This document shows, piece by piece, positions 25,795 to 52,188 of a stretch of DNA of 64,000 nt (within the stretch, counting starts at the first letter, position 1; every line of letters begins with the position of its first letter). The translations under genes were made by a program, and so were the position numbers. The stretch is from Lytechinus pictus (taxonomy: Eukaryota). Where the stretch lies: contig NC_087251.1 in the NCBI RefSeq assembly GCF_037042905.1, positions 12,526,001 to 12,590,000 on the forward strand, given 5' to 3'. A model generated the notes under the pieces. That model worked only from the letters and a program-made list of their open reading frames with translations, was not told where the DNA came from and searched no databases.

Positions 25795-28700
25795 TGATTA
25801 AGAATCAAGTTACTTTTTAATGCAAAACAATAATTTAACATCACACATGATGTTCAGCACACAATGATTCAGTGTCGAATGCATAATACAAATGATACCT
25901 ACAGACAAATACGATCAATGTCATTTTTTTTCTCAACTCCTCAATACACCAACCCCTTGCCTCATCTCCCATCCCACTTCCACTCAAATTTTCTCAACAA
26001 TTGTGTAGGAGCAAATAGTTGCTTTTCATTTGTATAATGAAAATTTGATTTAAAAAAACCCAAAAGAACATTGACTATGTATTACAATGACTAAAACAAA
26101 TCATTAAACGTTATCATCGGGAAAAGTGTTTTAGAATACATCCATGTAATAAAAAGTAAATATCAATATCTGCAATTCATTCTCTAAGTTCCAAAATATG
26201 GCAAGAAAAATGTAGATGAGTTGCAGTAGTATAATTCAGCAATGATTGTATGTTTTTATTAATTACCCTACAAAAAAAAACCAAATATTGGGTTTAAATG
26301 GAACATGTATGTGTGTTGGGTAAATAATGCCAAATCTTGAGTAAATTTCAGTGTTGTGTGAAAATTTACCCATGAAACAAATTTTTACCTACTACTTTAC
26401 CCAACAACATGAATGTTTATTTTTTACCTCAAATTGTGTAGATTTGAACTTTAAACTATATTTTAGAATGTGGAATAAATCATATTACGATAAGTATGTC
26501 AGACTTATGAATAATTCCTCTTTAGTTGCAGAGTTCATATTTAAGTTCAGTGGAAAATTTGAAAATCATATACAACTTATACACTTGTCTTCTGAAATGT
26601 AAGGTTGCCTCATACCTGATTTTCATGAATTCAAAAGGAGGAATTCAAATACTTACATTAAGCATTTAAAAGTAGCATTGATGGAAAATACCAAAAAATC
26701 AATTTTATTCAAGACAGTTTGAACATTATAAGATTGAATATAGTGAATATGCAAAACAAGTGATAGAAACATACAGAAAATGTGCAAAACGTGTACAAAT
26801 GTACACAATATCTGTACAACATTATACATGGGTAAAAAAAAATTGATTTCTGTTCATAATTAGAGAGCTCTTAATTTGAAGAAAAAAAAAGAGTTTTATC
26901 CCAATCCTCAACCACAATTGCACCCTACTTTTCTTACAATGTGAGAGAGTATCATTCAGTAATGAACTTTAGTGAAATACTTTGAAATATCTGCCATCCT
27001 TACTAAATATACATCAGTTTAGTAAAAAAATAACTTTTAAAAATCAGACAGTACGCAGCTTATAGCGATTAATATTGCTTATGGTCAGTACAACAATAAA
27101 TAAAAAACAATAAATGGCATCTTAGTACTTTTGTGAAGAAAAAGGGACATCAAACATAACACAAATATAACACATTGAAAACATGAATAGTTAAATATAA
27201 ACATATGAAAACAAAGTGCAAAAAAAAGGTCTTAAAGTGTGGTAAAAGCATGAACACTTACTTAGAAATAATGACAAATAATCAACCATGAACATGTTTT
27301 CAGTGCTTAATCAACTCTGATTTATAGTTGCCAATAATACATTTATATGAAACAAGTATCTCTCTACAAACTCTGAGTGTGACACTGTCAAATACTTTCC
27401 TGAATTTGATTTCAGCATTCACAATTAATACTTCCATAATCTTTTAACATTGTGGAGCATATAGGAGCCAATACTACATCAATTCTTACAATAGTATAAT
27501 AAACAAAGCCTCTCGGTGCCAGCATTATTGGAATTGTGTGATAATTTACCACACATCGACACCACATAACAAATAATAAGCTGCAGAGAAAATATCATAA
27601 ATGATTCATAGACAGAGAGCAGCCAGAAATATATCAGCCAACCCTGGTTTATTGCAGCATCGGTAATTCAACCACTGTCGCCTTTTTAATTCAGTTGCTA
27701 GGTCAATTTAATTCTTAATTTGACCAGAAATGAGTTCATTATTCCACATAGAATACAGCGATATTATTGCAGAGTCAAAAAAAAAATTAATCAGTCCTAA
27801 TTTAAAATGCAGTAATTGAAAGTATGTCAAGAGGAAAATAACATTACATATGTAAATATCTGTACATACACAGTAGGATACAATGCCTTCCTAATAATCA
27901 AGCTAACAGATTCATTCAAAGAATAAATATTGCCATTACAAAATAATTAAGGGGAACAATTATATTCGAATTGATAAAATATTAGATACCTTAAATGAAA
28001 ATTTCATATGTTTTATCTTCTCTTATCCTGTTTAACATTTTCATTAAGGTATCACATTCTGATTGCCCCAATATTGTTTTTATTAACCATTCACCAAATC
28101 AAAATGATTATTATTTGGCAATATGACACTTTCAAAGAGTATCTAAGGGGTGAATTTCCCATCTATGAAAAAATGGTATACATTTAAAAGCCAAAACAAG
28201 AGACAACTGTAGTGTCACAATGTTTAATCAGGTATTTTGATACTTGTACAAGCTCTTGTAATTAACTGGCATTTCCCCCATGCATATCGAGGTGTGAATA
28301 CGCGAAAATGCCAAAAAATATGCTCCTATATCATCGCCATGTATCATTTTCCTATCTTATTGCATAACTCAAGGTAATGTCATTCCCAGACAGCCATCAT
28401 TAAGCTCTTAATTCTCTTAACCGGTCCATGTCTCGAGCATTAGTTAACCCAACCTTCAAATATGATTGGTGATCAGCTATTATTACTACAAGTACAATAT
28501 AGAACTTTCGAAATATGAGCTGACATGAAAGGCCATAATCAAAGTAGCTATCACATTCCATGTTTAGGATAAATAGTTATGATATTTATAAGCTCCTAAA
28601 CTCAAATTAAGAAATACTATTGATTTATAAAATTAATACTGGCGATAATAAGATGCATACTGATCTTAATATGGTCTTAATCCTTTGCATATTATCTCAT

Positions 28701-31700
28701 TTTGATGTTCACAGAACTTCCCAGAATTATCTCCTCAATTATCAGACAATTTAAAATTGGTGTTTTAAATCAGATCATGTGCTCCATAAGTTAACAAGTG
28801 CTGGCTCCTTTGCTTTTGTGCAGGTTATAAAATATGTCACGAGCTCGCTGCCAGGTAAGTGAAAGCTGTTCAACCTTTGCATGCAAAGGTTATTGACATC
28901 ATACCCTTCCATGGATCTGGAATATTTTACAGCTTGCTACCAATTGATATCAATAAAGACATGTGCAGTAAGAAACACTAACTGAGGCGTCGATCTAGTA
29001 ATATGATTGTTTGCACATAACTGAATTGAAGAATGGCAAGAACCTTGCTAAAATGAAATTAACATTTAAAAAATATGAGTGAAGTGGATTGATTTTGATA
29101 GACACTATAAAATGTTAATATACAATATTTGTTCAGAGCAAATATAGGACAATAAATTCATATACATTATCAGTACACTAATTTTTTTTTCCATATGTCA
29201 GTCTTTAAAAATATTTATCACTATTTTGTTCAGACCTCATTCATATCAAAATATATTAGAGCAAAGTAGATTATATATTTATATCTATAATCCCATAAGG
29301 ATGAATAAAAATATTCTAAACACAGCTTTATCATATTCAGTTGCATAAAACTATCATGGCATTGAATTACATATTGCAGAATAATGTTTCATTTATGTTA
29401 TTAAAATTTCAAACTTGTAGATACTTCATTTGCTTGAATTTAATGATTATTTTTGTCTATGATTCTGTAACTTTCCTTGCAATTTATTATAGTTATTCAG
29501 GAGGAGAGAGGGAGAAAGAAAGAGAAAGGGGCAAGGAGAAAACACAGAAAGAGGAAGAAAAATTGACAGAAATAAACAAAGACAGAGACATAGAGAGACA
29601 GAAAACAGTCAAACAAATAGATGATGAAGAACTTGGTAGAAATCAGTAAACACATCCCTAAAAACAATTGACTATACTGTAAAGATTAAAAAGATTTATT
29701 TAATTTTACAAGATTGAAAAGAATTATCACACGAAACACAACAATATATTTTGTTATTTGACATTGCAAACGTATGTGCAACCATGAGCAAACTTTAGAT
29801 TATACAGCTCAACCAGCTACTTTTATTTTAAAGAAAATGTAAAAAAGTGAGACAATTTGTTGTCAAGCTTCAGATAATTTACATGGTATAAGAAAGCCTG
29901 ATTTATTCTCTCAACATAATAAAGTAGGAGGAATATCAAGGTGATTTTATATCTGTCTAGTTAGTAAGAAATCATGGTCTCTTCTTCATATTTCACCCAA
30001 CCCCCACCCCCCACCCCCTCCCCTATCTCATCTAATCACTATCCATTCCTCAGACTTCTTCAAACCACAATTATTTGGTTGGTATGTGCTTTCAAACCCA
30101 TCTGATCACAATTAATACCTTGTCATTTCTGATCGGAATTAGATGCCAACAAGAAAATACCAGGTAATTTACCAATGTGAAAGCAAAGTACTTATAATAT
30201 TCCCAAAATAATATACCAGCAAATCAGAAGGTACTTTTCAAATTAACAAGAATTTTCACAACAATTTCTCTCCAAAGACTTAGGTATAATAGTACACAGC
30301 TCCTATATCAGGCAAAAATCATTTTGCATAATTTGCAACAAGATTGCCAATCATGTTGCAGCAGGCTGATAAATATTTGTCTGGTTTGGAAGGAGCGAAT
30401 GTGAAAAGAATTATTTTGAGTTAATGAAAAAGTTCTTGAAATTTCCAGGTAAATTTGTGGCAAGATGGGTGTGAAAACACCTTGTGGCTTGTGAGAGGGG
30501 TATGTCCTCACATTTTTCAATTTGCCTGAGTCTTCAAGAATATCACTCCGGCATGATTCAGATATTGGGACATTAACACTGAGGATTAAAACCACTATTT
30601 TCTTTTTCATTTTTTTGTGTACATTTCAGAGTTATAGGTAAATCTTTAATTAGCTAGCCACTTAGCTAATAAATATCCTGAAAATTCAAAATCCAAAAGC
30701 CTGTTTAAGAATATGTTGATGGTTAAATGACTTCTGTAGTATAGGTCACGCTCTTGTTTTATCCAAGTAATGTGATTTTACCTGCTTTAACAATCATAAA
30801 CATACCAGTGTCAAGTCAAACATTTTCACTAATCTTCTAAAGACCAGAATATTGAGACAAACACCAACCAATGATTTTATTCAAGTACTTTTTGTAGTAG
30901 GTAGTAAAGAAAAAATTCCATAAATAAATTTGTCAAATATTATTTTCATCCTTTATATCATTTTTACTATTTTGGAGATTTAGAGTTAAGCTTTAGTTTT
31001 CTGTAGTGTAAATGAAACTAATATTCTTGTAGCCGATGAGATTGCAATCAAGGAGCTGAAAATCTTGATTGCATATTGTTGAGATTCCTTGAAGGGTTCT
31101 GTCTGTATCAACAAGAGGATTCTCATGTTACCAAACACCATCTACATAACCAAACACATTCTTATGGGTCAAAGCGACCACTTTGCCTCATGAGGAAAAC
31201 TTCTGAAATTGGACCAAAACATAACAGGTGGTATTCTGATAATCAAACCTAGGTTTAACCCTAGTCTAAACTAGAATTATAAAGCACATTTCTATGGAAT
31301 GCTGGGTTTCATAATATTTCTTCCACATTCACGGCGATTATAATGTATCAACTTATTTCTTAAAATTCATTATATTTTCATATTTTCCTATATTCTTCTC
31401 ATTTCACAGCTCAGCTAATTGTTTGATAACTTTTTTTGCAGCAGTATAGCAATAATTCTTAATTTGGAATAAGTTGACACCTGGCACTTTGTAAAAGTGT
31501 GGTCTAAGTTAACCCATGTTTAACTAAACCATATGGCTATCATTATACCACCCATTTGTCTTTGTACCAATAAGAATAATGAGTTGTTTTTGTTTTGCCC
31601 CACTTTACCACACACAAAAATGTTGTAAGAGTTATGCAACATATTACAAACGGCTTTATGACAACAGATTGGAAAGACAGTGATTTCATGTGTCTAGATG

Positions 31701-33459
31701 TTGAATCAAATGATTCAGCTTTCTGGCGATTCCATTTCTTATCGAATGTCATGATAGGAAAGTATTTCAGAAACACAATATAATCTTATAAAGAATTTCA
31801 ATTATATTGTAAAAGAACCATATACTTTTACGACATGGTGACTGTTAACTCCAAAACCAATAAGAGAGAACTGCACCCTCTATTTTTATACATATGTACC
31901 GGTGATTAGAGTTTAACGGATATAAGTAATATATATGATATGATTCTTCATAACTGGGGACCGAATATTCTTAATAATCTTGAAACCTGGATTCAATCAA
32001 AATTGTTTTATGTCATGGAAGGTATAATAGTCGCAGGACACATACAAGCAATTGTAAATATAGGTTTGCCTAGAAACTCCTGTCCCACATCAAAACACCT
32101 CAACACCCCATCCTTACTAAAGAGTGTATACACATACTCCATCATGGGACCATAACATTGTCCCCATCTATCCCCTGGCTAATAACCCCTTCAGTGGCTT
32201 CCCACCATGACTCACTCCAAGGTGGTGTCATTCCAAGAGCTTAGACGACTAATTAAGGGTGTCTTGTAAGTGTCTGTCGAGCTACATTCCAGGATATTAG
32301 TGCTTTGAGTTCACTCCATGTCAGCACAAGACTTCACAGATCGGTTTACTGCCGATGAGTTAATTAATGCAGCTAGACACCACTGATGTAATGATATACA
32401 TGATGGATGCTTCTTGGTAAATATGAGCAGATTCTGCAATATCCTCATCAATGATACATATCATGTTTACAAGGGATATCATGTTCATGCTCATAATGTG
32501 GAGTTTGGAAACCTTAGATAAGATTCCTTTACCTGGTAATGTCCTGTCACATACTGATGTCTAGCAATGCCATTCTGTAACAATTCACAGCAGACGGTGT
32601 TAGAGTATGTTGAAGCTTCCAAATTACAGACCTAAATCAGGGTGTTAATAGGCAATCATTCTCAAAACATGGTGGCACCATTTGTCAGTTTCATTTTAAC
32701 ACCGCTCCTAAACTAAAAAAATAATGGGCATTTACTTAACATTGAAACATCTATATGTTATTCATATATATCTACATTGTCATTTTTTCCAGTCATGGGG
32801 AAATGGATGTTCAGCTGACATTCATAGAGACAGCATAACAAAATGTAGTTAAAAACACATCTTATATTCCAGTCAAATCAATATAATTCCTTACTGATTG
32901 ATATGGTGTACTCTCAAGGTGGTATGAAGAAAAGGGGCCAAAAAGACATGTTTTTAAAATGTGTGGGAATTTCGGAAAGGAATTTGATAATATGCATTTA
33001 TGTGGATCTTTATTAAAAGAACTTTAAGCAAATGTTCATGCATACCAATTTAACCAATAAGTATGTTTGTGATCCCCCTAAACACAATAATGGAATGTGT
33101 ATGTATCACTCAATGAAATGCTGTATCATCACATCATTGTTTTTAATCAATTTTGTAGATGTGTACAAGAGGGACTGAAAAGATTTAGAGTGAGTTGTAT
33201 GTGAGCACAAATCTTAAAAAAAATGTCTGCATATAGTGTTTCATATACATTTACAAATAAACTTTTAGTATACAAAATTTACTATAAAACAGATCAATAT
33301 TTGCTCAGAAATATTTAGGTAAGGTGATTAAAGGAAAAGTGTCTTATCATTCTCTTGCATGTAATTGCCATCTTGCAGCTGACAATTTTTGTACTAAAAT
33401 AATCATCCAAAAATAATGTTTTTTGGGGTAACTAGGGTGCTAAGTGACCTTTGCCCTCA
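25795..33459 (-). other. Probable long 3'UTR of the kinase-fold gene (3' end approximate)
   Basis: U-rich on the minus strand and nearly transposon-free; ATTAAA on minus at 25816-25821 followed by a GT/T-rich tract. Confidence 0.45.
31226..31553. mobile_element. Degenerate MITE
   Basis: GGTGGTATTCTGATAATC and GCTATCATTATACCACC termini; subterminal GGTTTAAC/GGTCTAA motifs like those of 55925-56244. Confidence 0.5.
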
Positions 33460-33561
33460 TCAAAGTGGAACTTCTGTCACACAATTATCCAGCATGCAGT
33501 GGACGTCATTGGCCTCTGGACATGGCTCTCGGCTCCAACAAGCTTTCAGAATGTTCAGTAA
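33460..33561 (-). CDS. Terminal coding exon of the kinase-fold gene (subdomain XI-like)
   Basis: Acceptor TTCTATTTAACACAG, phase 0, LLNILKACWSREPCPEANDVHCMLDNCVTEVPL then TGA; LxxCW...P pattern of the kinase alphaH-alphaI region; in frame with either upstream donor. Confidence 0.85.
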   Translation of the reverse strand, partial: LLNILKACWSREPCPEANDVHCMLDNCVTEVPL

Positions 33562-34078
33562 CTGTGTTAAATAGAACAAGAATAATACTTGTGTTTAGTC
33601 ATTTCAATTACATTGTTTCAAATCCCACAGCTGACACCAAATATATGAGAGTTGTTAAATTTCTATTGCCTCTTATTATAACACTAACATGCAATAAGCT
33701 ATTACAATTTTCTTCAAAAATAAACATTAAAATAAAACATACATGGGAGGTTTATAAAAACTTTATTTGCAAAGAAGTTCGCGACCAGAAAAAAAAAATT
33801 CTGGGTCAGGCATCTTGTGCTAAACTGAAGGGATGATTTTCTTTTTTAAGAGGCTAAAAATGAGACAAAGGGTTATGGTTATGTACTAGTAATTCATTCA
33901 CTCAATATTAGAGATCTTTTCCCTTAATTGATCTGAATTTTCATGCATTTAGGGTATAAACAGAAAGTAAAATAGCATGAAGAGAGTATCATCTTTGACT
34001 GACCTGTTTATTGAGGCAACTGTCAGAATCCCTGATAACTACCAGCCATTCCATGATGGCTACATGGGTGTCCCCAAC

Positions 34079-36073
34079 CTCTAGGAGTTGATCCTGACCT
34101 GCCCCTACCTTGAGGCAAGGAAGAGCACTCAGAAGCTGCTGACTATAGGCTACATGGTGTTTAGTGACTCCACTGGGAACTGTCCTGATAAAGAAGTGCT
34201 CCCCATTGTGCATCGCTTGTGGTAGCGTACGGACACCGCTGCCGCCAACTACTAAATGGGAGTATCCCCATCCATTGCGCCCCATGACAATCTGATGGTC
34301 TTGAATGTTAGAAGCTCTGGACAAAGTCATTGATCGAACATCCATGGTTCGACATCTGCTTCTAGATGGGTGGTCTTTGGGTAGTGTAGCATGTGAGTAG
34401 CCATAGGCTGAACCACTCGGTAAGGCATATACTTGTCCTTCATGTTTAACAGCACCTAGTGAGAACTTACGTTGTCCCTTGGAGCCTTCATAGTAAGACT
34501 TAGCCCTGCAAGAGTCCTGAGCATCTAGGAGGGAAGCCGCACTGCTGGCCCTACTGACAGGTCGACTGCAGGGTGGGGTCAGCGATTCTGGGATCCCTGC
34601 TGTGAATGGCGTCAATGACTTTTTGCGGACATAGAACTTGGAGAGGGAACTCGTGGAGCGCGTCTCTGCTCCATCTCCACTACCTCTCCTTCTATCACTT
34701 TCATAATCTGTCTCTTTTTCTGTATCACTTTGGTCACATGATTTTACTCTTGACCGATATGATTTTTCAACATCAGATTTGGAGTCATCACTTCCTGTGT
34801 CACTTGGACAAGAGTGTTGCTGTTTGGGTTTTCTCCTATGATTGTTTCTGAAATTCGGTCCATATTCTATCATGGAGTCATCCTCATGGCAAGAATCTCC
34901 ATCAGTAGACCCTTCACTGACCTTCAAATTCTGAGCAGTTGCATCCAACATGCCTCTCAACTTTGAAACCGCTGTACCTCGAGTGGCTTCACTGTCAGAG
35001 AGAGCTGATTCTACCCTGTCATTCAGTTCTATCAAGTGAGCATCTGCTTTTTTACTCTGTCCACACTTATTAGTACTTCTCATAGAGTTTCGAGGTGATG
35101 ATATCCCGCTATCACTGCTACACAAGCTGTGCCGCTTTTCGCTCTTCAGGATTTCAGATGACATCATTGAACGTCGTGGAAATGTTGCCGCTAGTCGCGG
35201 ATTGTCCTTCAAGCAGCTTCCATCTCCTGTTAAATTATTTTTATTGTAATCAGATACCATTCCTCCATGTCTGTTACTATGGTAACCATGAGCATCACCA
35301 TCATCTGGTTTTATCAACCTCTCTGCATCATCTTCCCTGCTACCTCCTTTCTTACCCTTTACATGTCCAACATATGTACTGTCAAGGTTTTCTCTTGAAG
35401 GAACATCAGCAACACCACTTTTGGGTCTTGGAGGGAGGTTTGTTCGGTCCATTCTCTTATTCAAAATCTTACGATAAACTCCAGCATCACTCATTGCCCT
35501 CCTGGCTCGCATATCCTCTACAGCGTAACCCTGATTTGCATAGTAAATCCTCTTTGGACTTGGTGTGCCATTCCTATCATCTGTCCCTTCCTTTCCACTT
35601 CCTGCTCCATCACTCAAGAGTTGACCAGCTTCAATATCCAGTCTCTCCTGACTGACATTAGGGGAGTAAAAAACACTAGGGACACCCCTTACTGATTTGA
35701 CACATCCCTCACCAGCAAGTCTCGCTCCGATGACTGACCCTTGATCAGGTTTATCCCAAAGGATATGGCCTTTGTAGCCAACAGCATTGTCTTGATCCAA
35801 ACCCTGATCAACTTGCTTCTGCTTTAACCAAGCCATCATCTCCATCAGGACAATAGCGAAAGACCGGACATCATTGGAGAACTCTGGTTTCTTGTTCTTC
35901 TCCTCTGTCTCTCCTTCTCTCCCTTTCTTTCCTCCTTTCCTTGGCATCATCAGTTCGGACTTGTCGTCATCCTGCTTCTCATTGCCAGCCCTGTAGACTG
36001 GTGGCTCCTGTCTGGGTGGTTTGGCATAATCAATGGCACTGGTGAAGTTGGAGATCACAGCCTTGACTTTGTT
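34079..36073 (-). CDS. Kinase-fold (probable pseudokinase, TK/TKL-like) protein, ~2 kb penultimate exon
   Basis: Lies within the 704 aa ORF; acceptor TTGTCTTTCAG at 36075/36074; KAVISNFT matches subdomain VII position and DVRSFAIVLMEMM matches subdomain IX; two possible phase-0 donors, AAG|GTAGGG (exon ends 34109) or GAG|GTTGGG (exon ends 34079). Confidence 0.85.
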
Positions 36074-39000
36074 CTGAAAGACAATAAGAGGAAATGGTAA
36101 CACTAACTTTTCAGAATAATTATGAAAGCATCACACTGCAATCTCAGTAAATCAGTCGATAAGAAATATGAATTAATATTGAATTGGTCAATTATCCAGG
36201 CTCCTTATTAATTTGGCAAGTATATACTTTTCTGTTTGTAAACCATGATGATGAAATCTTGAATACAGCCCATGTTCTATAAAGTTGATACCAATGACTA
36301 GTTATTTGAAGAATTACATATCAAGATAAACACAAAACTTTAATTTGACCATGAAATGAAACACAAATTCAAAGTGGTCTGTGCTGTTGGCTTAGCAATT
36401 TGAGTGACCAGAATGTTTCATATAATTGTGCATACTATGTAAGCAGACAACCAAGAATCCTTATAGACATTGCTCCACTGTGATAAGTACAATATAATTC
36501 CAGAATATTATCAGGATAATGATGGATAAGAATCTTTCAACATCTTTCATTACATCATCAAAACATTATGTTTACATATACATGCATCTCTATCAAGCTG
36601 ATGTGTAAGTAATGGTATTTTAAACTGCCTAATATTCTCCATCTTTCCTCCTTTTCCAAATTCCACCCAACGATCAACAGCAATCATACAAAAGGTCATG
36701 AGGCAAAAACACATTAGTCAGCCATAGGCAAATCAGAACTTTGGAGACATTTTCTGATCAATTATTTAGGTATACATCCTATTCATATTCCCTCCAAGCC
36801 CTACTTTCCCTCCTCGTAAATCACTGTAAAATATGCAGATAAAGACCCTACAGTTCAGACTGTTCTCGGAGAGTAGAAGGAAATCCTTGATGCCTTGGAA
36901 AACTGTATGATTCTACATAAAACTCTTATTCTTGTAGTCTGAATGGACGCAGAGAGTTCTCTCCCTTCCTAAGTAGTTTTGGGACAAAATTAGGAGAGAG
37001 TGACGTGGGGTGTTAGAATTGACAAGACAAAGCTGCTCTCACACAGATGGTCGGTCATTAAAAAAATAATATTAAAAAATGAGAGTGATTTGTAGGTTTC
37101 ACGCTTGCTATACTCAACAAATGTAAACCTGTGGGCTGCATTCTGACATCGAAATCAGACTATGGAAAAGGGTTGAAGTTCACATTTGTACTTATAAGTC
37201 GATTAGAAAAATATGTGAATGAGGTCATTAACATGCACATATCCTGCATGGGTATCACTTGTACCCAGTACTACCCACATGCCAAGCAGCATTGAAATTG
37301 GAGTTTGCTTTCTTGGTCAGGTTTACCTTTTTTGTGGTGAAATGGTTGACAGGAGACATACCTCCATCCATTAATGTGTCCAAGTTAACTTGTGCCTTCC
37401 AACGGGCTAGGTGACCCATAAAAAAAAACAAGGTACAATTGGAAGAGGTTCTCCCTCTGCTCTGAGAACAGTCTGAACAAGAAGGCTCATCCCCTCTCCA
37501 TACCCATTACAAGGATTTGACGCTTTAACATAAAATCCACTCTGATATCTAAACCCCAATTAAAAAAATGTAGAGTGGGAGATAGATACTTTGCTAAGTG
37601 GTTCTTAAGATTTATATCTCTCAATGGCTACTTGAGCGATGATTTTAATTCGGCTTAATGGTGAAAATTCTCAGGCAAATATTTTCTTGATAACAATCTT
37701 GAAACTTTTAGAGTTAGAATAACTTAAAGTGAGAAAATGCATTACACAATCAGTATGTTCTTCATTCCCTACTTTTTTTTTTCTCTCTCTCTACCTCTCC
37801 TACTGTCTTCTCTCGTTTCCCCTTAATGACATATCCCTTCGTCATCTCTTTTGCGCACTTACGCTCACTATTTTGGATATGCGCATTTTTATGATGCACT
37901 ATGTTTACTCAATCTAATAAATTTGTCAAAATTTGACAAAGCACTAAGGGCAAATATTCGTTAAAAATTTAGTGTGCATAGAGTTTTAATACTTTCCTTT
38001 GTTTGAACCTACTTATAATCTCCAAGCAGATCATTTGACTTATATATATATATATACATGTTTATATCTGAATCTTTACTAAAAGGCTCAAATACATCAA
38101 ATGCACTTAGAAGCTTAGTCCATAATGCAAGGGATTACTTTCTGTATAACTCCAACACATTCTATTTCTATTAACTTCCATTTTCATTATTCTGCTGAGT
38201 GGCTTTAAAGAAATATAATAATCACCCTTGTTGATTTGCAAACAGAAAGGTCAATGCTATTACACCACAAGACTCCCTATTCATTGTTTTTAGAGCAAAA
38301 CACTTCCTGAAGCTTTTGTAACAAAATATCTTTTCCTGTCATGAGGCAGGTGTTTCAGGATTTTTACTTTTTAAATCAAACTGAAGGAAATATTAAGTAC
38401 TTAAAAGAAATATGGGGCTTTATTCACCATCAGGGCAATACATAATGCATTATAAAGATAAATTATATAAAACCCAAAACAATTTTCCTTCTACCTCACA
38501 AATCCAAACACTATTTCTAAAGATGAATATAGGCAAGAACAAGTGTGTTCAACACAATTGTGTGGAACTGGGGAATATGTGCATAAATAAGTGTATGAGT
38601 ATTCATTTTTGACCAATGACATTCATTTGCGACAAATGGTCATTTTTGTGATTAATTGTTACTAAGCGTGCATTTAGCCTTGCCCCAATAGGTGCTCATG
38701 TATTATGTAGACTGTACTGCATGTTCAAAATACACATGCCAAGAATTCCACATCTTCCTAAGATGAGGCCTCTTAACACGAAACTTAGTGATTGATCACT
38801 AGATTGATTTTCATGACTGCTTAGTGTAAAGGGGTCCGAGGCTATCATCTCCCCCCCCCCCCCCGCATTAAATGAAGGTCTCAAACCATGCCAATGAAAA
38901 CATCACCTAATACCATGCATTGTGTATAATGCAAAATGTCCAAGTGTAACAAATGTAAGTGAACATTTTACTTCTGTTTGTCACAATACGTTTGTGCAAA

Positions 39001-42000
39001 ATGCATTCTAGGCTTAATAATTACTGACGACAGCACTGCTTATGATGTGAGGCAGGTTTAATAAGGGATTTGAACCATAGACTTTATTTCATGAGAGATG
39101 AAATTGAGAGAGCTTTTTTTTCAAGGTCAGTTAAAAACCTGTAATTTCACAGTATTTCCCATAACCCATATTAGAGTCTCTACTCACAGACTACAGAAGA
39201 ACATTATTTGATGCCACTTGAAAAAGTATGTAATCTAAAATGAAGCCAACAAGAAGAAAAGAGTAGCATGGAGACATCATGATCACCCGTGACCTTAAAC
39301 ACAAGGAAATCAGATCTCATGAGTGAGCCTCCCCCTCTATCACTCCTTCGGCCTCTGAATGTCTTGCCCGAGGGCGTAAAGCCGTCTGCAACGACAACAA
39401 CGACGTCAGAGCAAGATGAGCTCGTAAGACAGCGGTTAGGATAGGGAAGCATTCCATTTCCAGCACACTACCTGTAACTTAACAGTTTCTCATTGGGAAG
39501 GAAGTGCGGAGAAGTGGGGGTGCCACGCCCTTGTAAATTGAGATATCCCGCCCCCTCTCAGGTGGCTAATTGGCCTCTAGTGACCCTATTATGAGTTTCT
39601 TCCCCCCAAGCCAAATCTTGGTGTGCAACAAGCAACACAGTGAATATACTTTGATTACATCTGAGAGATTCATAAATAGTAGATGAGCAGAGACAAGCAT
39701 ACCTCTAGGATGTTTTATGAAGCTGTTTGTAAATTACAAACAACTTTACAAATGACTGACTGGTGGCCTGTTCCTGGGCGCTAAATCAAATTCTCAATCA
39801 TTTTCATTCCCATTAGTTAAAGAAGAAATCCAACATTTGTTGGATTAAAATTATTGTTGTAAATGAGGATATGGATGGAAGTTTATGATTTGTCAAATTG
39901 TTATCAGGGTTATAGGAAATTCCCTCCCACTGTGTTAAAAGAAGACAAATGTATCATGATGACAGATCGCTAGTTGTATGTAAGGTAATGTGTAAATTGC
40001 CAACATCAGCATTACCAAGTACCATCCAGGGCTAATAGAGATGACTTGTAATGTAAGAAGCAGTGCTTCTCTCACAAAAACCCATATTCTAATAATGAAC
40101 TTTATTTCTTTAAGGGAATCATCATCTATAATGACTTTGAATTGAGAAGCTGGTCATTGCATTTCAAATTAAAATTCACTTAGCTAAACATATGACAAAA
40201 ATGTAAAATGTTATTGCAAACTGTTATCTTGAAGAGCAATATATATCTTGTCATGCATGCATATGTTCACCATTAATTTTTGTTTTTCACAAGGACATGA
40301 CCCGTTTTACTACATTTGAATTTGATGTGTTATAAAACTCTTTTTTCTAATAGATAAGGAGAGGGCTGTGTTTTTTTTTTTTGGGGGGGGTCAATTTTGG
40401 TAAAAATCCTGGGGATCTGTTGGACAAAAAGTTGTAATCAAATTCAAATCTAAAAATCAAACACAACTTCCTTTTCAACCACTCCGTAGTCCTCATTTCT
40501 GGACTTGCAGTTGATTTATGTAGTGGTGTTTAAACTCATTTCTTTCTGCAAAAGGCCCCTGGATCATTTAGAGGAAGCCTGTAAGGAAATCTGTCCATCG
40601 GTCCTTCCCAATCTTATTTCTAAATGTACATTGGATCATGTAATAGTGGAAATGGGATATTTCCACCCAGTCCTTGTCTTGACCTAACTATGTGAGGTTC
40701 AGCAGGGACCATCAATAACCTAACACAAGTGTCTTTGGGAAGTTTGATTGGATTCATTGATGTCTTCTACTGGTGTGGTTGGCTGAAGCATGGAGACAGA
40801 CAGGTACCATTTCAGGCAAGTTGAATGTGGCATATTGGTGAGAGTCCAAGTTTCATCCAAGTTTACAGATCACAATCATACCTTGGTCAGAAATATTTTC
40901 ATTGGTCTATTGGATTTTTTTTATCTACAAGCTTTGTCACCACCCATTGATGTGGAACGAGGATGACAAATAGAAGCAAAAGGACAGGAGGGAGAAGAAA
41001 ACATCAAGTAAAAGCAGATGTAATGAAAGGGGAGTATAATCAAATACAGCACAGACAGAGGGGTGTGAAATGCTTAGAAAAATTAACAGATAAGAGTCAA
41101 TTTCTAAAAAAATTGAGAGATATAAAGTACACATCATGAGAAAACACACACCTGGCAATATGATAAGGGAAGGTCAGTTATCCAAACTCAACAAGCAAGA
41201 TACAATCACTTTTCTATACAATTGATCTTTATTATTTCAATGCACACTAAATCTTAGGGATGATTGAGAAAAACATGAATTAAGAGGTCCCTTTTGGTGC
41301 TTTCTGACTAGGCAAAGAGGTGTCAAAACCTTTCCTGTTCAGCTTTTCCTGACTTCCTTTTCTCACCTTCAACCCTGCATTAGGATGGATGATGGGGATC
41401 CAGGGATGTTGTTGCATATCCCTGATGGATCCCTGATCAAAGCTCAGGGATGAGGAGACAGAGATGCATGCATTCAGGCGATTTTATACAGCTACAATCA
41501 TTAACATGAATCACAAATGAAACATACAAAGCCAGAAATGTGGCATCTGTAGGAAAGCTTTTAAGTGATATCCATCAAGCAGGATTCCACCTCATTTAAA
41601 GCCCACCCACTATTCTGCCAAGACCCAGAAAGTAAAAGTCAAATTGGATTGTATACAATGATGTCCTAACCTTCTTGCAGAGCACTTCTGTTATGTCATA
41701 AAATCATGAAATAGATCTTTGTTGCATTCAAGCAATTTCTAGCAACCATGCTTCTACAGAAAAATACTTGTCATAAATTTATAACATTCAAATTTTTCAA
41801 GGTAACCCCTCCCCTCTTTCCTTAACCACCTGAGCCATTCATACCTCGAGCATTTCTTAAAATCGTGATTCTCATCTTTACCTTGTTTGAATGGGACTAA
41901 TTATTTTCTTTTCACCAAATAGCCATCTGTAAATTGTTATCAACAGATTTTTCTTTGTGACGCTTCATCCAAGGAGCGATGAGATGGCTAATTCTTTTGA

Positions 42001-42031
42001 TTTTAATGAGTGCTACTTTTCAAACATCATG

Positions 42032-42460
42032 AGGTGGTTTCAAACCACCTCGATCACAAGAATCCCAGTAAAATTACGAGAACATTTTAAGGCCAAAAAT
42101 ACCTGTTAATTATTTCTGCAATAACACTGCCCCAAAACATACCCTTCGGGATGAGTTCCTGAAGTTAAGAGCAAGCGCAGTATGGTCTGATAAGCAAGCA
42201 AGGTGCGAGATTCAAAATCGCTATTTCAGCAGACACCCACCGCACCCTGCGCCCAACTACACGATGAGCTAAAAGCTCTAGTAATTTGCTTTCACACTGC
42301 CAAAATACTTGCAACTGTAATCCCCATGAAAGTTCTTGTAATTTTGAAAAGTACCTACTATTTAGCCGGTATTTTCTTTCGGGGGGATTATGCGTAATTT
42401 GCTTTCACATTGCCAAAATACCTGGAACTGACAAACTTCAAGGCGGGTCTGAAACCACCT
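42032..42460. mobile_element. Harbinger-like MITE
   Basis: Termini AGGTGGTTTCAAACC and GGTCTGAAACCACCT; internal direct repeat GTAATTTGCTTTCACA(C/T)TGCCAAAATAC; TSD not clear. Confidence 0.72.
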
Positions 42461-42913
42461 ATAGTTTCCCTCCAAGACCATGAAAGGTTTTCTTTCTAAA
42501 TAATGGATTAATTGTGGTGAGGAAATTGCTTGAATTTCTATAAGCTTCTTGGGGATAAAAAATATTAGAAATGACACATTTTATTCAAAGATTTTGTTAC
42601 TTAAATGAAAGTTGCTTTGCACAAAACATCCCAGTCAAATTGTATCATTCAAATTATGACATTAAAAAATAAAAAAGGGGGACAACTCTCCCAAGAGTCT
42701 TGAAGCCAGGTTACAGATGAAGAGGTCCCTCCTTTTCCTCCCACTTATCAACATCTGTAAGCTCTTATGAACTCACTCTCTTTGTTTGCAAGTTTGACTT
42801 CAATTAACAAGCAATGACATGGCTAATTCTTTTTGTTATTTTACAATCTTTTACTCTGGATCTTTGATTTTTTATTGTGTATGTTTACACGCCCTCAGTT
42901 ATTTCCTCTTTAA

Positions 42914-43498
42914 AGGTCCAGTCCACCCCAGAAAAATGTTGATTTGAATAAATAGAGAAAAGTCAAAATAGCAAAATGCTGAAGATTTCATAAAAATCGG
43001 ATGTAAACTAAGAAAGTTATGACATTTTAAAGTTTTGCTTATATTTCACAAAACAGTGATATGCACAACTCAAATGAGACAGTAGATGATGTCCCTCACT
43101 CACTACTTCTTTTGTTTTTTATTGTTTGAATTATACAATATTTTATTTTTTACAGATTTGACAATAAGGACCAACTTTACTGAACTATATAATATTACAC
43201 AATAGTAATTCCACATGCTCAGGGAGCAATTAATTGTTTTTTCACTTGACAATGAAGAGAAAATGAGAATATTTCATATTTCACCTAATAAAATACAAAA
43301 GAAATAGTGAGTGGATGACGTCATCAGTTTCCTCATTTGCATATCCACCAGGATGTGCATATGTGAAATTAAGCAAAACTTTAAAATGTCATAACTTTGT
43401 TATTTTACATTCGAGTTTGATGAAATTTTCAGTGTTATGCTAGCTGGATTTTTTTTCTTTTTATTCAAATCAACCCTTTGTTGGGGTGGACTTGTCCT
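42914..43498 (-). mobile_element. Kolobok-like TTAA MITE, family K copy B (inverted relative to A, C, D)
   Basis: TTAA|AGGTCCAGTCCACCCCA ... TGGGGTGGACTTGTCCT|TTGA; interior is the reverse complement of copy C. Confidence 0.87.
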
Positions 43499-45330
43499 TT
43501 GATTACATTTGAATTACATTCAATTATAAATTCTAATTTCATAGTGCCTTTCAAGGCAAGGGCATCAGAAAAGGGAAACAAAGAGATAAAGAAAGTTATG
43601 CAGATTATTTTTGTGCAAAATCTACATTCCTGTAAGACTTTTGCTGCTTTACTAGCTTCAATTTTTAAGAAAAAAAAATCTTTAAAAAAACTATTAATTG
43701 ATTTCCTAAACTCAATGTGAAAAAAAAAAATAAAAAGAACATTAACAGGACATAACTGATTTCAATTATTATTCACTTTACAAAAAAAATCAAGGGACCT
43801 GGAATCTGTATTAAAAAATCCTGTTTTTCTTAAAACGTTTTATTTCATCTCCGGTAATGCATTTCTTATCTTATAAAAGCACAGGAACATATTCTCTCCA
43901 TAAATTCTACAAAACAGCAACACTCGTATTAGCAGAGTGATAAAAAATAAGTGTTTTTACTCCTCTGACTTTTCTCAAACCAATATCATGCCTGATCTGC
44001 CCAATTCAAGAAAAGAAAAGTCTTTGAAGAACCATGTTTCCATTAGCTCATGTTGATGGGTGGTTGGAATATGACTGTGAATCCTGGCATACCATCTTAT
44101 CATATCTGCCAATATCTGTGATTTGAACAGCAAGAAAATAGTTGGATATCATCAACAAATCACCCTTGGCTCCCCCAAAAATGTTTGTCTCGAGTGTGAA
44201 ATCTAGAGAAGGAATGCAAGAAATAACCCTCATAGCATCTTGATTGCAGAAGTTGATCTTGAGCAATTTATGACTGGCTTAATTCCCCTACATAAGAATC
44301 CGTGGGGTATTTCTTAACTCAGGCTAATTGGAACAAGGCCTAAAAGGAAACCCTGATAACACTATCCTGAATCCTAAATCATTAAAAAGCTCCATGATGG
44401 TTATTAATGAATGAATACAAAACTTTTCCTCTTCCGCTGATTGTACGCAAATGAAGAATCAAATGGATGAAGCTGCTTCCTGTCTTAACTGGCAATTTAT
44501 ATTATCTGCTGAGGTGAGAGGCAAATGTCTTTTTCACATAATTAGAATTCTTGATAAGCAGCTCTACATTATTATTTTTTTGGCTGCTTTGGATGCTCAT
44601 TATGCACTTTTGTACAGTAACTGAAAAGAACAATATACAAATCTTGCTTAGCCAACCAATGTATAGCCCTAAATTGTGCAACTTTTTGGTGTAAACATTT
44701 AAGTAAACCATTCAAATACAAACAGGCATGCATGGGGTAAATGGTCCAGACAAATAAATAACTTTTGCACTTGATGAAAAGTGGTGCAATCAATATTCAT
44801 GAAAATTAATCTATTGACCAATAAATTATCCTATTCGCATAAGCCTAAAATTAGGAACTGGCAGTGGGCGGAGGCTAGGGGGCAGAAATGTTATCATTCA
44901 AAACACCTGCTGTAAAAAATAAAATTAAAAGTCGAAAGTGTCATCATATGACAAATTCTGACAATACAACCATCACTGTATTCCCTTCTTGCTCTTCATA
45001 GAGATGATTGACATGATGAAGTTGGAATAGAAGGGGAAACTGGAAATACTGACGGAAGTAAAGGGAAGAAAGGTTGTCAGATTTTGAGGAAATCATCAGA
45101 GAGAAAGATGCTACTGTTATGGTGTGATATGAGGTGACATACATGGTGTTCTGTTCAGCAACATGACAACAAGAGATAGTATAGATTTATTTCACAAATA
45201 TCAACCAATTATCTTGTCTGTATTTGACTCTTTATCTCTTTTATTCTGTATTTATTTCCTTTCTCAGACTCTTTTTAACTTTTTATGTACATTTCAACAT
45301 GCCTTGAACCAGTATCAGTTCATGGACCTG

Positions 45331-45511
45331 GTGGGTGTTTCATAAAGCTGTTCGTAAGTTAAGAGCAACTTTAAGAACGACTGGTGATCCTTTCTTGTGT
45401 TAAATGGTGTACACCAAAATTTTCATTGGCGATGGTTTAGCGTGTAAGAAAGGATCACCAGTCGTTCTTAAAGTCGCTCTTAACTTACGAACAGCTTTAT
45501 GAAACGGCCCC
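45331..45511. mobile_element. Harbinger-like palindromic MITE (CWG target)
   Basis: ~65 bp near-perfect arms GTTTCATAAAGCTGTTCGTAAGTTAAGAGC...GGTGATCCTTTCTT; CTG and CAG flanks. Confidence 0.85.
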
Positions 45512-45622
45512 CAGATTGTGCTTGTTACTTTGTATACTGCTTTTCTTTGAAATAAAGAAATAATTATAAATCACTGAACCACGGAATTATTCCAAACTAT
45601 GCCAACTGAAGTTCTTTCTTAA

Positions 45623-46211
45623 AGGACAAGTCCATCCCAACGAAAAGCTGATTTGAATAAAAAGGGGAAAATCCAACACACATAACACTGAAAATTTTAA
45701 TCAAAATCGGATGTAAAATAAGAAAGTTATGACATTTTAAAGTTTCGCTTAATTTCACAAAACAGTTATATGCACATCCTGGCTGGTATGCAAATAAAGA
45801 GAGTATGACCTCATCGACTCACTATTTCTTTTGTGCTTTATTATATGAAATATGAAATATTCTAATTTTCTCCTCATTGTCAAGTGATACGATTAATTCC
45901 TCCCTGAACATGTGGGATTAGCATTGATTAATACTATATGGTTCAGTCAAGTTGGTCCTTATTGTCAAATCTATACAAAATGAAATATTGTATAATTCAA
46001 ACAATAAAATACAAAAGAAATAGTGAGTGATGGACATCATCGAGTGACTCACCTAGTTGTGCATATCACTGTTTTGTGAAAAATAAGCGAAACTTTAAAA
46101 TGTCATAACTATCTTATTTTACATCCGATTTTGATGAAATTTTCAGCACTATGCTAGTTTGATTTTTCTCTATTTATTCAAGTCAGCATTTTCCTGGGGT
46201 GGACTTGACCT
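45623..46211 (+). mobile_element. Kolobok-like TTAA MITE, family K copy C
   Basis: TTAA|AGGACAAGTCCATCCCA ... TGGGGTGGACTTGACCT|TTAA. Confidence 0.9.
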
Positions 46212-49200
46212 TTAAGACTTTCTCATTCTCCTTCTTCACATACCTGTGATATATCATCAGCACCATGCAGTATCAGAGGTGAATGCATGAATATGAATCT
46301 CATTGAAATATGAAAACCCACTGGAAATAGGTCAGCATGCTTGAATGTGATCAGAACCACCAAGGGGCAGGGAAACTCATAACGTTGGGCATCATTTTTT
46401 TATGTTAGGGTGGGAAATTACCAATGATCGTTATGTCCCAATATGTCTGGCTACTTAATTTGGTGCCCTGGTTACATTTTCCCCATATTCCCACAAGACT
46501 TTTTATGACTTTTTTATGTATTTCATCCAGTCTTGTAACAGGTCAAAAAGCTGCCAAATTTATAATCTACTGTATGTCATGCTATATATGACATTCCAGA
46601 AGTAAATATAAAAAATGTTTACACAAACAAGTGCCTATACAATCAAAATCTAATCACGATTTTGATTGGAGGGCATTGAAAAGACATTGATCTTATCTAA
46701 TTTGTGAACAATTTGTTGTAACTTAAAATGCAATAAATTAAGGGAGTCTGATTGTAAAGACTATAACCTCATTAATTAACAGGGGAAACTGGTGTTCAAT
46801 TTATGAGTGTGAGGATGATTTGATCAGTTAACTTCTAATTGTGTAGCATCCTTCCTGCCAACGATAACATCAGATACGAGAGCATCTAATTTATTAAGGT
46901 TTCAACAAATTGTCACTACTAATAACAGTATTTTAAATCTATAAACCTGTGAAAATAACCAGTGTATAAATAGAGTAGAACAACAACAAAACACCATCTT
47001 CTCCACTTTTCAATTCCAATTCAAATTATTCCTAATTTTTCCTCAGTTTTGCTGTTCTCTGTCTTTCCTTTCTTGTTTTTTCTTTTCCACTTACCACCTT
47101 CAATTCTTCCCTTCTCTCCTTTCTCTCCCATTTCTACTTTATTTTCCCTCCTTCCTTACATTCCTTCTCTGACTTTCCTTTCTCTTTCTTTCTTTGATCT
47201 CTCCCTCAATTATGCATGCCTTGTGATGAGTCATTAAGTATCATTTCCATATGACAATATCAAATCTAAAAATATTCCATAAATATCATGTAATTACATC
47301 TATAGGAAATAAATCAGCCAACTGAAAATAAAAATATCTACAAGTTAATTTCCATTTCTTTACATCAAAGCAATTAAGAATACATTTAATTCCTTTCCAA
47401 ACCATTCTTTGCATCTATAAAATATTACACAATGTTTATTTTGAATAAAATATCAAAGGGCATTGTATCTTTTCAAACTAGGACAGGTTCACTAGAACAG
47501 AATGCTAGTTGAAGACGATGATTCCACCTTCAAATGGGATAAAAATCACTTCATAAGCTCTCACAAAAGGTCAAGAATTCTTTCCCAGATCGAAAAAAGT
47601 CAAAAAGGCCAATCTCCCGAAGAAATCCTCTTGATTTTCATGCAATCAGAAAATAATGCTTTCATCTTTTTGCCTGAATCTTAATGTGGATTTGGTTGGA
47701 TTGCTAATAGCCTAAACTATGAATCAGGATTTTCTCTTCAAATTCAACTTTGGGGTACTCATCAACCCAAAAGGCATAAAGTACAAAGAACAAATGGTTT
47801 ATCTCTTCTTCCTGTCTCCATAAGTTCTATCAATACCAATCATATAAACATGTCTTATCACTATTTTACAAGGTAAAATTATTTTTTTCATTGGGCTTAT
47901 TTTGATAACCTCTATTCATGAAATGGTAAAAGTAAAATAATTATTTGTTACTTAAAGCTGACACGAGCATATACAAATATCCTTTTCCTGTCATAGCAAA
48001 ATTTTGATTTGCACAGATCTATTCAGTCATGTACATGTATGTACTTCCATAGTTGGAATAAAAAGCCCTTGGTTTATAACACTTCATCAAAAAACATCTG
48101 TAAGAAAAAAAATATTAGAACAAATCAGAAAAAATATATAGACTCAAGGTGACCTCTAACTTTCCATACCTGGCCCTACCCATATTTTGTGGTCAAACCA
48201 AAATTAGTCTTTTCCTCTTTGATTATCAAAGCTCAGATTAATTTCAATTGGGAATGTTTTTCTTTAAAATCCATGGCTTATCCAAAACCTTGGAACCAAC
48301 ATGACAGGGTGTTAGTTCATACACATTTGAGGGTAACCTTGTTGCTCTATGGTTATAATTGCTATGTGCAAGCCTTGGAAGGTATATTGATTATTAAACT
48401 AATCTATCAATAATATATTAATATATTTTAAAAAGTACATTTCGTTTTAACACCCAAGTTGAATGAATTAAATAGATCTAAACTTACATGACAAAGTATT
48501 ACTTATTATCATTACAATTAATTTAACTTATAGTTTAATTAGGGGGTTATACTTTTACACTATGGAGAAAAAATGGTCAATCATTAATATGGCAGTGACC
48601 AAAATCGAAAGTTTAGCATGATAAAGCTAATAAAAGGTTGAGGATTAATCTAATCTCTTACTTCAAACAAGTAGCCAATAATGTCCACCCAACTTGGACA
48701 TGAAAGACCTTGCATAAGTTCAAACCTTGACTCTGAATATATTTAGCTTAGTCCTTGATTCTTTCTGTGAAACAGACCCTTCTTATTGAAACCCTCCCAA
48801 ATAACTTTGGAAAATAAAATTCCTTTCCTCAATTCAAAAATATAATTTCTTTATCATAAAGTTTGCTATTGAAGAAAAACTGCTTGTAAAATGTACAAAA
48901 TGCAAAGCATACACAAAAATTACATGATAACACTTTTAGATTATGAAAATATAATCTAAATTCTTTGGCTAAAATTATATGGCAAACCTTAAAAATGGTA
49001 ATTTGTGCAGGAAAATGACTATCATGTTAAATGTTTAGTTACATGAAAACATCTGGTGCTGCTTAAGACAAGGGAAGTGACCTTACTTGACATCATGACC
49101 CATATATGACCTTGATAATGATTGCATGATGTCTACGCTATTTTCATTAGGTTCTTAATGGGTTTTAATCATGCCTAATTGCAGCATAACATTTTACATT

Positions 49201-49866
49201 CAGGATATTGGCAAACTTTGTTTGGTTTAGGATGCTAATAAAAAATAATTTTATGAATAAGCCTTCATTCCCATAATTGCTTTGCTTATTCATGCTCTCC
49301 TTACTTGCTCAATTTCCTCTGAATTGCTGATAAATTATATTATTTTAAAAAAAATTACAAAATGAGCAAATATTCTAATCATATTGCAATTCTTTGTTAA
49401 TCTCATTTTCCTATAGATCCATATTTCTTTAATAATCTCATTTCTTTATAAACAACTATACATATAAGTACAAGATGAATCACTTTACCTATTCCATTCA
49501 TTTAATAACAATCCTTTCATCCGAACTTAAGTGAATACAATCTTGTTTTACTATGATTCATTGAAGAAAAATTTAAAAAGTAACATTTTGAAAATTACTA
49601 CATAGAAATGGGAAATTATTTGAAGAAATTTATCAAATTGACTTTAATTCTTCTTACTAAACATTGAACTTCCTGATAAAAAAAGGAACAAAAATGTAAT
49701 TTGTCAAAAAGGATGTACCTCTATAATCTCATTGTCATAAAAGTATTGTAAAATGATTGGAATATGTCCACAGAGAGATCAGAAGGTAAATGGTTTGGGA
49801 GGTATCATTTTTCATCTAATCATAAACATTTGTGTTGCCAAACATTGAGCATTCAAACTCGATTCA

Positions 49867-50237
49867 TACCCCTTTCATAAACCCAATTATGCGGCTAATA
49901 GCAGCATAATTTGGTCGTAAAATCAGAGGAGGACCAGAGTTATCCGCATTATTTTGATGCTGCAATTATCCGCATAATAGCGGCATCGGGACCAGATTTT
50001 GACTTTATGAACGCATTTCCAAATAATGCGGATAATTGCCATGGTGCGGTCACAAGGTCACATTTTTCCAACACAACCGCATCGGAGGGGGCGTGTGCAG
50101 TTGTCATGACAATTATCCGCCTTTTTCAGGACGGGCGCTCGTAAAAATAGTGCGGATTATTTTCGGAGTTTGTGAAAATTGAATTATCCGCATTACTCTT
50201 AGGCGGCTAATTGGAGGGTGGGTTTATGAAAGGGGTA
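49867..50237 (+). mobile_element. Harbinger-like MITE, family H copy 1
   Basis: TIR TACCCCTTTCATAAACCC / GGGTTTATGAAAGGGGTA; internal ATCCGCAT/TGCGGAT repeats; very similar to 62854-63235. Confidence 0.87.
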
Positions 50238-51386: not shown

Positions 51387-52188
51387 GGGTGCGTTTATGC
51401 GCCACTTTTTTACCCTAGAATCATGATTCAAATCATGATTCTGCAGAATCACGATTGCGTTTAGTCAATAGTAAAAATAAACTTCTTTCAAATCACAAAC
51501 ATGAAACACGGAAAAAGGGGCGTTTGGAAAGACGTTTCTGTAGAATCACGAACGAAAAAGGTCGTATAAACGCAATCGTGATTTGAATCATGATTCTATG
51601 ACGTCACTGTGTCTGGCTTCTTGAGATTTTACTCTTGCCAAGCTCAAGGCGCGCTATGCTCAGTGTATTTATACATAATTTGATATGCATGCATTTCTTG
51701 TCACATGCATTTAACTGTGTTGGGCATCGCATCGTCCACTTCTTTTCATCTTTTTTTTTTGGGTCATGTCTTCAACTTCAAGTGAACTATAGTAAATGAA
51801 CTAACTGAACAGACAATGATATCAATTGTTGTTGAGTTAACAGTGTCAATATGAAATTGGATCTACCCTAAAATTTACTTCCGAACACCATTTTCGATAA
51901 ACCGACAAGAAAAATAATAAGTAAACAAAATGTGGTATAATAGACTGAATTCGGAAGGTAAAGGATTGATTTTTCGAGAGCCAAAACACGTGCGAAAAAA
52001 GTTTACCTAACTTCCTCTGTCAAACTGTGCACTGTGATGCGCATTATCCAGATCGGCCCGAATCCGAAAAAAAATAGCTTTAAAATGAAGGTCGTCTAAA
52101 CGCTGATTCTGTGGTATTGTGATTCATGTTTGTGTTTTGAATCATGATTCAAATCATGCTTCTGGCTTGAGGTCGCATAAACGCAGCC
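51387..52188. mobile_element. Harbinger-like MITE with AATCATGATT subterminal repeats
   Basis: Termini GGGTGCGTTTATGCG and CGCATAAACGCAGCC, AAA on both sides. Confidence 0.78.

Follow-up and report, generated by a model that had tools for sequence, protein, structure and literature searches.

A putative seven-helix receptor-kinase fusion with a split and apparently dead kinase domain in the sea urchin Lytechinus pictus

Gene organization

The window analyzed here is a 64,000-nucleotide stretch of the 812-Mb Lytechinus pictus genome (C7:12526001-12590000). Its only long open frame runs from 36130 to 33989 on the minus strand, and within it the exon at 36073-34004 (−) stays open through 690 codons. 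A first-pass annotation had read this region as a probable pseudokinase. When the protein of Acanthaster planci LOC110979617 (1,324 aa), which has a hydrophobic domain and a kinase N-lobe at its start, was aligned to 200 kb of sequence past the window, three collinear exons were found on the same strand, and a fourth was located from splice signals. The gene assembled from sequence in this starfish-guided way has six exons over 106 kb, with exons 5 and 6 inside the window and exons 1 to 4 outside it, so that 83-103 kb separate exon 5 from the upstream sequence coding for the seven-helix domain and the kinase N-lobe. Joined in phase at GT-AG ends, the six exons give a single frame of 1,252 aa, and we are confident that this structure of six exons and one protein is correct.

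The upstream exons, all on the minus strand and together holding 1,587 nt of coding sequence, encode the seven-helix domain (exon 1, coding part, C7:12664354-12665293), a linker with a degenerate glycine loop (exon 2, C7:12660837-12661054), beta2-beta3 and alphaC (exon 3, C7:12658806-12659041), and the hinge, alphaD-alphaE, and the catalytic loop (exon 4, C7:12644653-12644845). Exon 5 (34004..36073, −; 2,070 nt, phase 0/0) carries, in order, beta8 with the tripeptide NFT, the activation segment, alphaF, a long insert, and the first part of a C-terminal block. The coding part of exon 6 (33460..33561, −), a 102-nt exon that had already been proposed, is the last coding exon and supplies alphaH, the CW motif, alphaI, and the stop codon. 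Introns 1 to 5 measure 3.3, 1.8, 14.0, 82.6, and 0.4 kb; intron 4 is 82,579 nt in full, with its window part at 36074..64000 (−), and over its whole length it holds 15 stop-to-stop frames of 110-194 aa, none of which looks coding by eye.

Downstream of the stop, a probable long 3' untranslated region (UTR) of ~7.7 kb (25800..33459, −) is tiled with holes by contigs of sequencing runs X1 and X15, no single contig covering its full length; it contains 26 ATTTA and several AATAAA sites. Extra coding exons considered near 32575-32532 and 32400-32200 were rejected, as both fall past the stop and inside the contig-covered UTR. At the other end, a candidate 518-nt leader in exon 1 (C7:12665294-12665811) has 15 upstream ATGs and an acceptor that is predicted only, and ~106 kb upstream of exon 1 there is a 574-codon Ser/Pro-rich open frame with no Pfam match (L020:1645-3366, −), which probably belongs to another gene. 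Exons of a neighboring gene occupy 1928-13514 (+), one of them matching a BACK domain, and this gene, which we take to be BTBD9-like, runs toward the receptor-kinase gene so that the two meet tail to tail. Between the two, similar stretches with matching translations lie in opposite orientation at 19791-20069 (+) and 23127-23399 (−).

Transcript evidence and one versus two units

Four sequencing runs were mapped, on 25500-43500 only (18 kb); the kind of run X15 is unrecorded. Contig 15 of that run (X15/15) covers 33153-33561 and then 34004-36075 with no gap. It therefore joins 33561 to 34004, removing intron 5 (33562..34003, −; 442 nt, GT-AG) and keeping the whole insert, as had been supposed. 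Because it skips this intron and because depth is near zero upstream of 36075, we consider the contig to be derived from a transcript. The first-pass annotation had placed the splice donor at 34079 or 34109; both are in frame, like 34004, yet they are unsupported in the mapped contigs, and the donor at 34004, together with the acceptor exon at 33561, is also used by RefSeq LOC129264941 (L. pictus) and its L. variegatus counterpart. The basis of this junction is thus one contig plus the RefSeq models; the splice-joint listing is dominated by repeats from 42-43.5 kb and has no row for this gene among the joints listed. With the donor corrected, the low-complexity insert comes to 554 aa rather than the ~570 aa first claimed, and a conserved block ends the giant exon.

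Exon 5 is covered whole by contigs X1/8 and X15/15. Raw-read depth over it is 0-1.6, with all reads on the strand expected for minus-strand RNA, and upstream of it, as far as the mapped 25500-43500 interval reaches, depth is approximately zero. A separate feature of that interval is a tract of high-copy repeats at 41700-43500, which each of the four runs covers to a very great depth; like elements are seen by eye near 45600-46200 and 58900-59500.

In public annotation the gene is split. Urchin RefSeq models consist of a 545-aa front half and a 725- to 740-aa back half, and this raises the question of whether the urchin locus is really two units, or makes mainly a short isoform, with a 544-aa seven-helix protein bearing half a kinase while exons 5 and 6 encode a soluble protein of their own. 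Three urchins and one starfish have half-length models, the length of intron 4 is 82.6 kb, and read-through of exon 4 would add 15 codons before a stop, with an AATAAA ~1.1 kb farther on; the resulting 529+15 aa come close to the 545-aa Strongylocentrotus purpuratus model, making a 544-aa read-through form possible. Against two units, exon 5 has a strong acceptor in phase 0, which is the phase of exon 4, and the first coding exon that RefSeq places at 37845-37795 (−) is almost without RNA depth (zero in its bin in three of the four runs and 0.7 in the fourth) and is probably an annotation artifact. Further, contigs X1/8 and X15/15 extend by 1,653 and 2,453 nt past the start of exon 5, these overhangs consisting of sequence from beyond the mapped interval, and both fit the upstream coding exons; the splice of exon 4 to exon 5 across intron 4 in L. 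pictus is well supported, though no read or contig was seen across it and the agreement is one of lengths. The junctions of exons 1-2, 2-3, and 3-4 are present in RefSeq-derived rows of the supplement of PMC10463195, and models of three starfish are joined. We judge the two-unit reading to be quite unlikely and conclude that the unnamed front-half and back-half models of urchins probably belong to a single gene.

Homologues in urchins and starfish

A HMMER scan returned seven proteins at E values up to 0.001. Three starfish RefSeq models (A. planci, Patiria miniata, and Asterias amurensis; 1,324-1,359 aa) show the same layout in one chain; the models of A. rubens are split at the same intron as those of the urchins, whereas that of A. 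amurensis is joined. The uncharacterized loci LOC129264941, LOC121418117, LOC110979617, and LOC119741457 are the same gene, full length in starfish and lacking the front half in urchins. Over the first 620-650 aa the urchin protein is 34-36% identical to those of P. miniata and A. amurensis, over ~1,000 aa it is 29% identical to that of A. planci, and over the last 90 aa urchin and starfish share 37-41% identity. In addition, at least one of three distant unnamed homologues has a start and an end like those of exon 5.

The whole-genome search of L. pictus revealed no second full copy. A homologue search of exon 5 against longer proteins, weak by the tool's own note, found no match, and a metagenome scan with the same exon produced 46 pattern matches, of which not one could be confirmed.

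A seven-helix domain of LGR/RXFP type

At the same threshold, seven hydrophobic segments were found in the urchin protein and six in that of A. planci; a S. purpuratus model is listed with seven transmembrane segments (TMs) in the supplement of PMC10463195. Searched against solved structures, a five-sequence profile of the domain returned RXFP1 (E = 6.5e-6) and LGR4 first, and the top fold matches of a weak structure model (pLDDT 51) were TSHR and FSHR. The ESM Atlas gave GPCR-like clusters of mixed families at 0.93-0.95. Pfam 7tm_1 did not match the urchin sequence, and starfish sequences scored 25.3 and 21 (E = 1e-5) versus a cutoff of 30.5. The next-best loci in the urchin genome are three PF00001 exons of the relaxin-receptor type, and the one tested further gave RXFP1 as its best match. 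Taken at the level of sequence and fold, the domain is thus assigned to the LGR/RXFP type, without ectodomain and without the DRY motif.

The residues by which such a receptor would switch G proteins are degraded. The species aligned lack both the acidic-basic pair of the DRY position and the TM2 Asp, and the NPxxY motif reads GPxxY or GSxxY, its Asn being gone. The protein might still respond to a ligand as a GPCR and couple to G proteins via a noncanonical TM3, with the pseudokinase tail serving only for tuning: all four species keep the seven helices, the cysteines of TM3 and ECL2, the basic stretch at ICL3-TM6, and the TM7 tyrosine, and even RXFP1 does not have DRY, its aligned residues being EKY. 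We consider this unlikely, as a basic residue at the DRY position is found in none of the four species, no exon for LRR or LDLa turned up when 125 kb of upstream sequence were scanned with simple patterns (the two stray matches lie in frames with stops), and the starfish models begin only 14-35 aa before TM1. With no ectodomain found in that scan or in the starfish models, we do not count the protein among the LGRs.

The closest seven-helix relatives by sequence and fold remain LGRs of type C (RXFP1/2 and GRL101) and LGR4, with which the urchin protein shares the TM3-ECL2 cysteines and an LCLPL-type loop. It differs from them in having no LRR/LDLa ectodomain or hinge, in the loss of the charges at the DRY position and in TM2, and in its 950-aa cytoplasmic tail.

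A degenerate and split kinase

The tail begins with a recognizable kinase. Exon 4 (hinge, alphaE, and catalytic loop) matches PF07714 above the cutoff (E = 3e-11), the E values in three starfish are 1e-10 to 7e-10, and from the N-lobe to beta8 urchin and starfish are 45-46% identical, more than in the seven-helix domain or the C-terminal block. The best solved matches of the kinase part, among the best 60 listed, are Src-family, EGFR, JAK, and LIMK domains; Src/Fyn, JAK3, and LIMK score within a few bits of each other over ~65 aa. On these matches we assign a TK/TKL-like kinase fold in which no subfamily can be named. A possible likeness of the N-lobe to TGF-beta receptors and of the catalytic loop to guanylyl-cyclase pseudokinases was not borne out, neither group occurring among the best 60 solved matches listed.

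The catalytic residues are lost. The HRD position reads HTR in the urchin and HGL in starfish, and the DFG position reads NFT in the urchin (36041..36049, −), as first reported, and NFS in three starfish. No APE motif occurs in the 56 residues between NFT and alphaF. None of the four species (the catalytic loop of A. planci being read from its model sequence) has the HRD Asp, the DFG Asp, APE, or the subdomain XI Arg; the loss of this Arg had been noted at the outset for the urchin. Hence this is not an active kinase; the proposal of a catalytically dead kinase with a split C-lobe is upheld and extended by the PF07714 match and the lost HRD Asp, and from these substitutions we regard catalytic death as almost certain. 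What did not survive is the free-standing pseudokinase, the dead kinase being attached to seven membrane helices as their cytoplasmic tail.

A dead kinase may nonetheless act as a switch. Receptor guanylyl cyclases have a kinase-homology domain that binds ATP and works as an allosteric switch, and by analogy the urchin domain might bind ATP and relay movement of the seven helices to an effector in trans. In favor of this, the alphaC Glu and the hinge are kept in all four species and the beta3 Lys in starfish, and the stretch from N-lobe to beta8 is the best conserved part compared with the seven-helix domain and the C-terminal block. However, the beta3 Lys has, in the urchin alone, become Gln, the urchin has no glycine-rich loop, the best solved matches are those named above, and no cyclase domain follows the kinase. 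Such an ATP-dependent relay is in our view very unlikely.

The C-lobe is present in order but split. Subdomain IX, the alphaF helix DVRSFAIVLMEMMAWLK (35822..35872, −), was found after the activation segment where it had been placed, aligns to the kinase profile, and keeps 9 to 23 of 23 residues in eight homologues. The distance from the DFG position to subdomain IX is 59 aa versus 39-54 aa in seven of eight parsed kinases of the same genome (the eighth, at 211 aa, is a pattern mismatch). From subdomain IX to the CW motif it is 630 aa, versus 54-58 aa in the three own-genome kinases with a parsable CW. Subdomains IX to XI all follow in order, with the conserved helical block that closes exon 5 (34004..34180, −; ~58 aa of the C-terminal block, including an alphaG-like helix) and exon 6 beyond the insert.

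Whether the C-terminal block is truly kinase was examined with profiles. Against a TK/TKL C-lobe profile, built from eight C-lobes and picked after a mixed profile had given a weaker result, the last 60 aa scored above 1000, 999, 999, and 1000 of 1000 shuffles in the four species, and none of 217 insert windows reached the score of the block. The mixed profile tried first (16 own-genome kinase pieces) was weak, with 15, 92, 96, and 16 of 500 shuffles reaching that score. In profile-profile alignment the block scored 24.3, and none of 200 column shuffles went above 19.3. By the TK/TKL profile, the kinase likeness of the block is more than chance.

Direct searches with the back half named no family. 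Pfam found no family in the 740-aa model or in two pieces of exons 5 and 6, a back-half alignment profile had no matches among solved structures, and in the ESM Atlas the 740-aa model reached kinase clusters at 0.89, below the bar. An AlphaFold2 model of the starfish kinase and insert region had a mean pLDDT of 38, with the halves apart and the core misfolded, and Foldseek and VIA-align on that model gave chance matches only. The unassembled halves, together with ~30 extra conserved residues before alphaG that are missing in ordinary kinases, could mean that the block is an independent helical module whose kinase likeness is a relic and which does not fold back on the core. The same AlphaFold2 model misfolded the core too, however, and the block exceeds shuffles on the TK/TKL profile and in profile-profile alignment and is 37-42% identical between urchin and starfish; an independent module therefore seems to us highly improbable, and we continue to treat the block as the probable rest of a split C-lobe.

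The insert and a scaffold model

The insert (34160..35821, −; 554 aa, or 587 aa when counted up to the alphaG-like helix) is rich in Ser/Thr and charged residues. It measures 614-639 aa in starfish, where it is likewise retained, and ~390-430 aa in the three distant unnamed homologues. Its identity to the urchin sequence is 98% in L. variegatus, 65% in another urchin-like sequence, and 21-26% in the rest, and in a weak starfish AlphaFold2 model its pLDDT is ~30-35.

Short motifs nevertheless recur in it. T[FY]PRR (35171..35185, −) is found in eight of nine sequences, and [KR][RQ]xSxCS followed by DSG[IV]SS (35096..35137, −) is found in all nine; RSxSSLSxFY[VI] (34628..34660, −) is matched by pattern in eight, the ninth having K for the first R. 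As the nine insert sequences are related and two are near-identical, these counts are not independent events. DSGxxS occurs in 1-7% of shuffled inserts. The consensus of the betaTrCP phosphodegron is given as DSGXXS in the abstract of PMC13097077, which the DSG[IV]SS cluster fits as a pattern match and so as a candidate degron. The extreme C terminus (33460-33477, −) is also conserved, ending in TEVPL in urchins and TEVAL in starfish. Such an end could serve as a PDZ-type ligand.

Both folds are kept across urchins and starfish while both sets of switch residues are lost, and we therefore find a scaffold to be the best reading: the protein probably signals as a scaffold and not as an enzyme. 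The explanation we favor, with somewhat better than an even chance of being right, is a single 1,252-aa membrane protein in which ectodomain-less helices derived from LGR/RXFP are joined to a dead TK/TKL-like kinase whose alphaF and alphaG are set apart by a disordered loop of 554 aa. The seven helices would serve as membrane anchor and may also act in sensing, in dimerization, or in pairing with a second receptor, canonical G-protein coupling playing no part, and the dead kinase would be a folded platform that holds the loop. The loop would be the output, its conserved short motifs being phosphorylated by outside kinases and then recruiting partners. The cluster of a basic-x-Ser motif and DSG[IV]SS could then recruit betaTrCP, leading to ubiquitination, removal of the protein, and an end to the signal. 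For this scaffold-with-degron mechanism, which is read from motifs, we put the odds at about even.

More speculatively, the gene may represent an old animal family that is doubly degenerate, with relaxin-receptor-type helices stripped of ectodomain and G-protein switch and a dead kinase bearing a loop of phospho-motifs, working through neither a G protein nor catalysis. It would perhaps be an obligate partner or decoy of LGR/GRL101 receptors for insulin-like peptides, with a built-in degron as the off switch. We offer this broader picture only tentatively.

Relation to known systems

Long inserts in kinase domains are known from Greatwall/MASTL and CDC7, which are active, soluble kinases; the Greatwall insert is ~500 aa and lies in the activation segment. 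The urchin kinase resembles them in the long insert and differs in being dead and in having the insert between alphaF and alphaG.

Fusions of GPCRs to kinases have been described elsewhere. GPCR-TKLs occur in oomycetes and amoebozoans, and the text available from PMC5784254 calls GPCR-bigrams rare or absent in animals. The portion available of a 2025 survey (PMC12716839) reports GPCR-TKL/K in choanoflagellates and GPCR-TKs limited to choanoflagellates and early-branching animals (sponges), none functionally characterized. Compared by their descriptions, the urchin protein is set apart from these GPCR-TK/TKL bigrams by its LGR/RXFP-like helices, its kinase without catalytic residues, and its bilaterian host, and also by the 390-640 aa that interrupt kinases of this type.

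Yin et al. (2023; PMC10463195), in the text available, devote one sentence to sea urchins having GPCR-TMKs and do not mention catalytic death. In the accessible part of their supplement, XP_030855453 and XP_041469348 are, by eye, exons 1 to 4 of the gene described here. XP_030855453 is listed there with 545 aa, seven TMs, and PF07714 at 462-527; with this length and a kinase match that ends at 527, the model lacks exon 5, the insert, and the C-lobe. The rows run from TM3 to the hinge, so that mostly membrane sequence was aligned as kinase, and the placement in a TK clade is insecure as far as this part of the supplement goes. Elsewhere, the word "kinase" is absent from PMC2246102, and the available parts of PMC4079206 and 10.1101/2021.04.15.440029 contain no such fusion. 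The full protein has no description in the literature searched, a scope that ended short of subscription journals and bioRxiv supplements, and no paper there cites any of the six model identifiers.

The sequence features indicate a conserved, largely undescribed GPCR-kinase bigram with a split kinase, neither half of which looks functional as a switch. Public annotation would be corrected by joining the split urchin models, the published tree having been built on a truncated half. A GPCR-kinase fusion is thereby placed in the sea urchin, an animal in which knockdown and reporter work are standard practice, and two questions are made testable, namely, the role of a seven-helix-kinase fusion and the folding of a C-lobe around a 550-aa loop.

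Two further sets of sequences were encountered in these comparisons. XP_045327168 and its relatives look to us like fusions of an olfactory receptor and an ILK-like kinase. In the accessible part of supplement file 1 of PMC10463195, these rows are labelled "GPCR-TMK" and are possibly a merged gene model. In the L. pictus genome, intronless kinase frames occur in pairs with identical scores and lengths (C4:3066033 with C5:27338033 and C14:19492922 with C15:17985258; 357 aa and 1,393 aa), which suggests recent copies or mobile elements.
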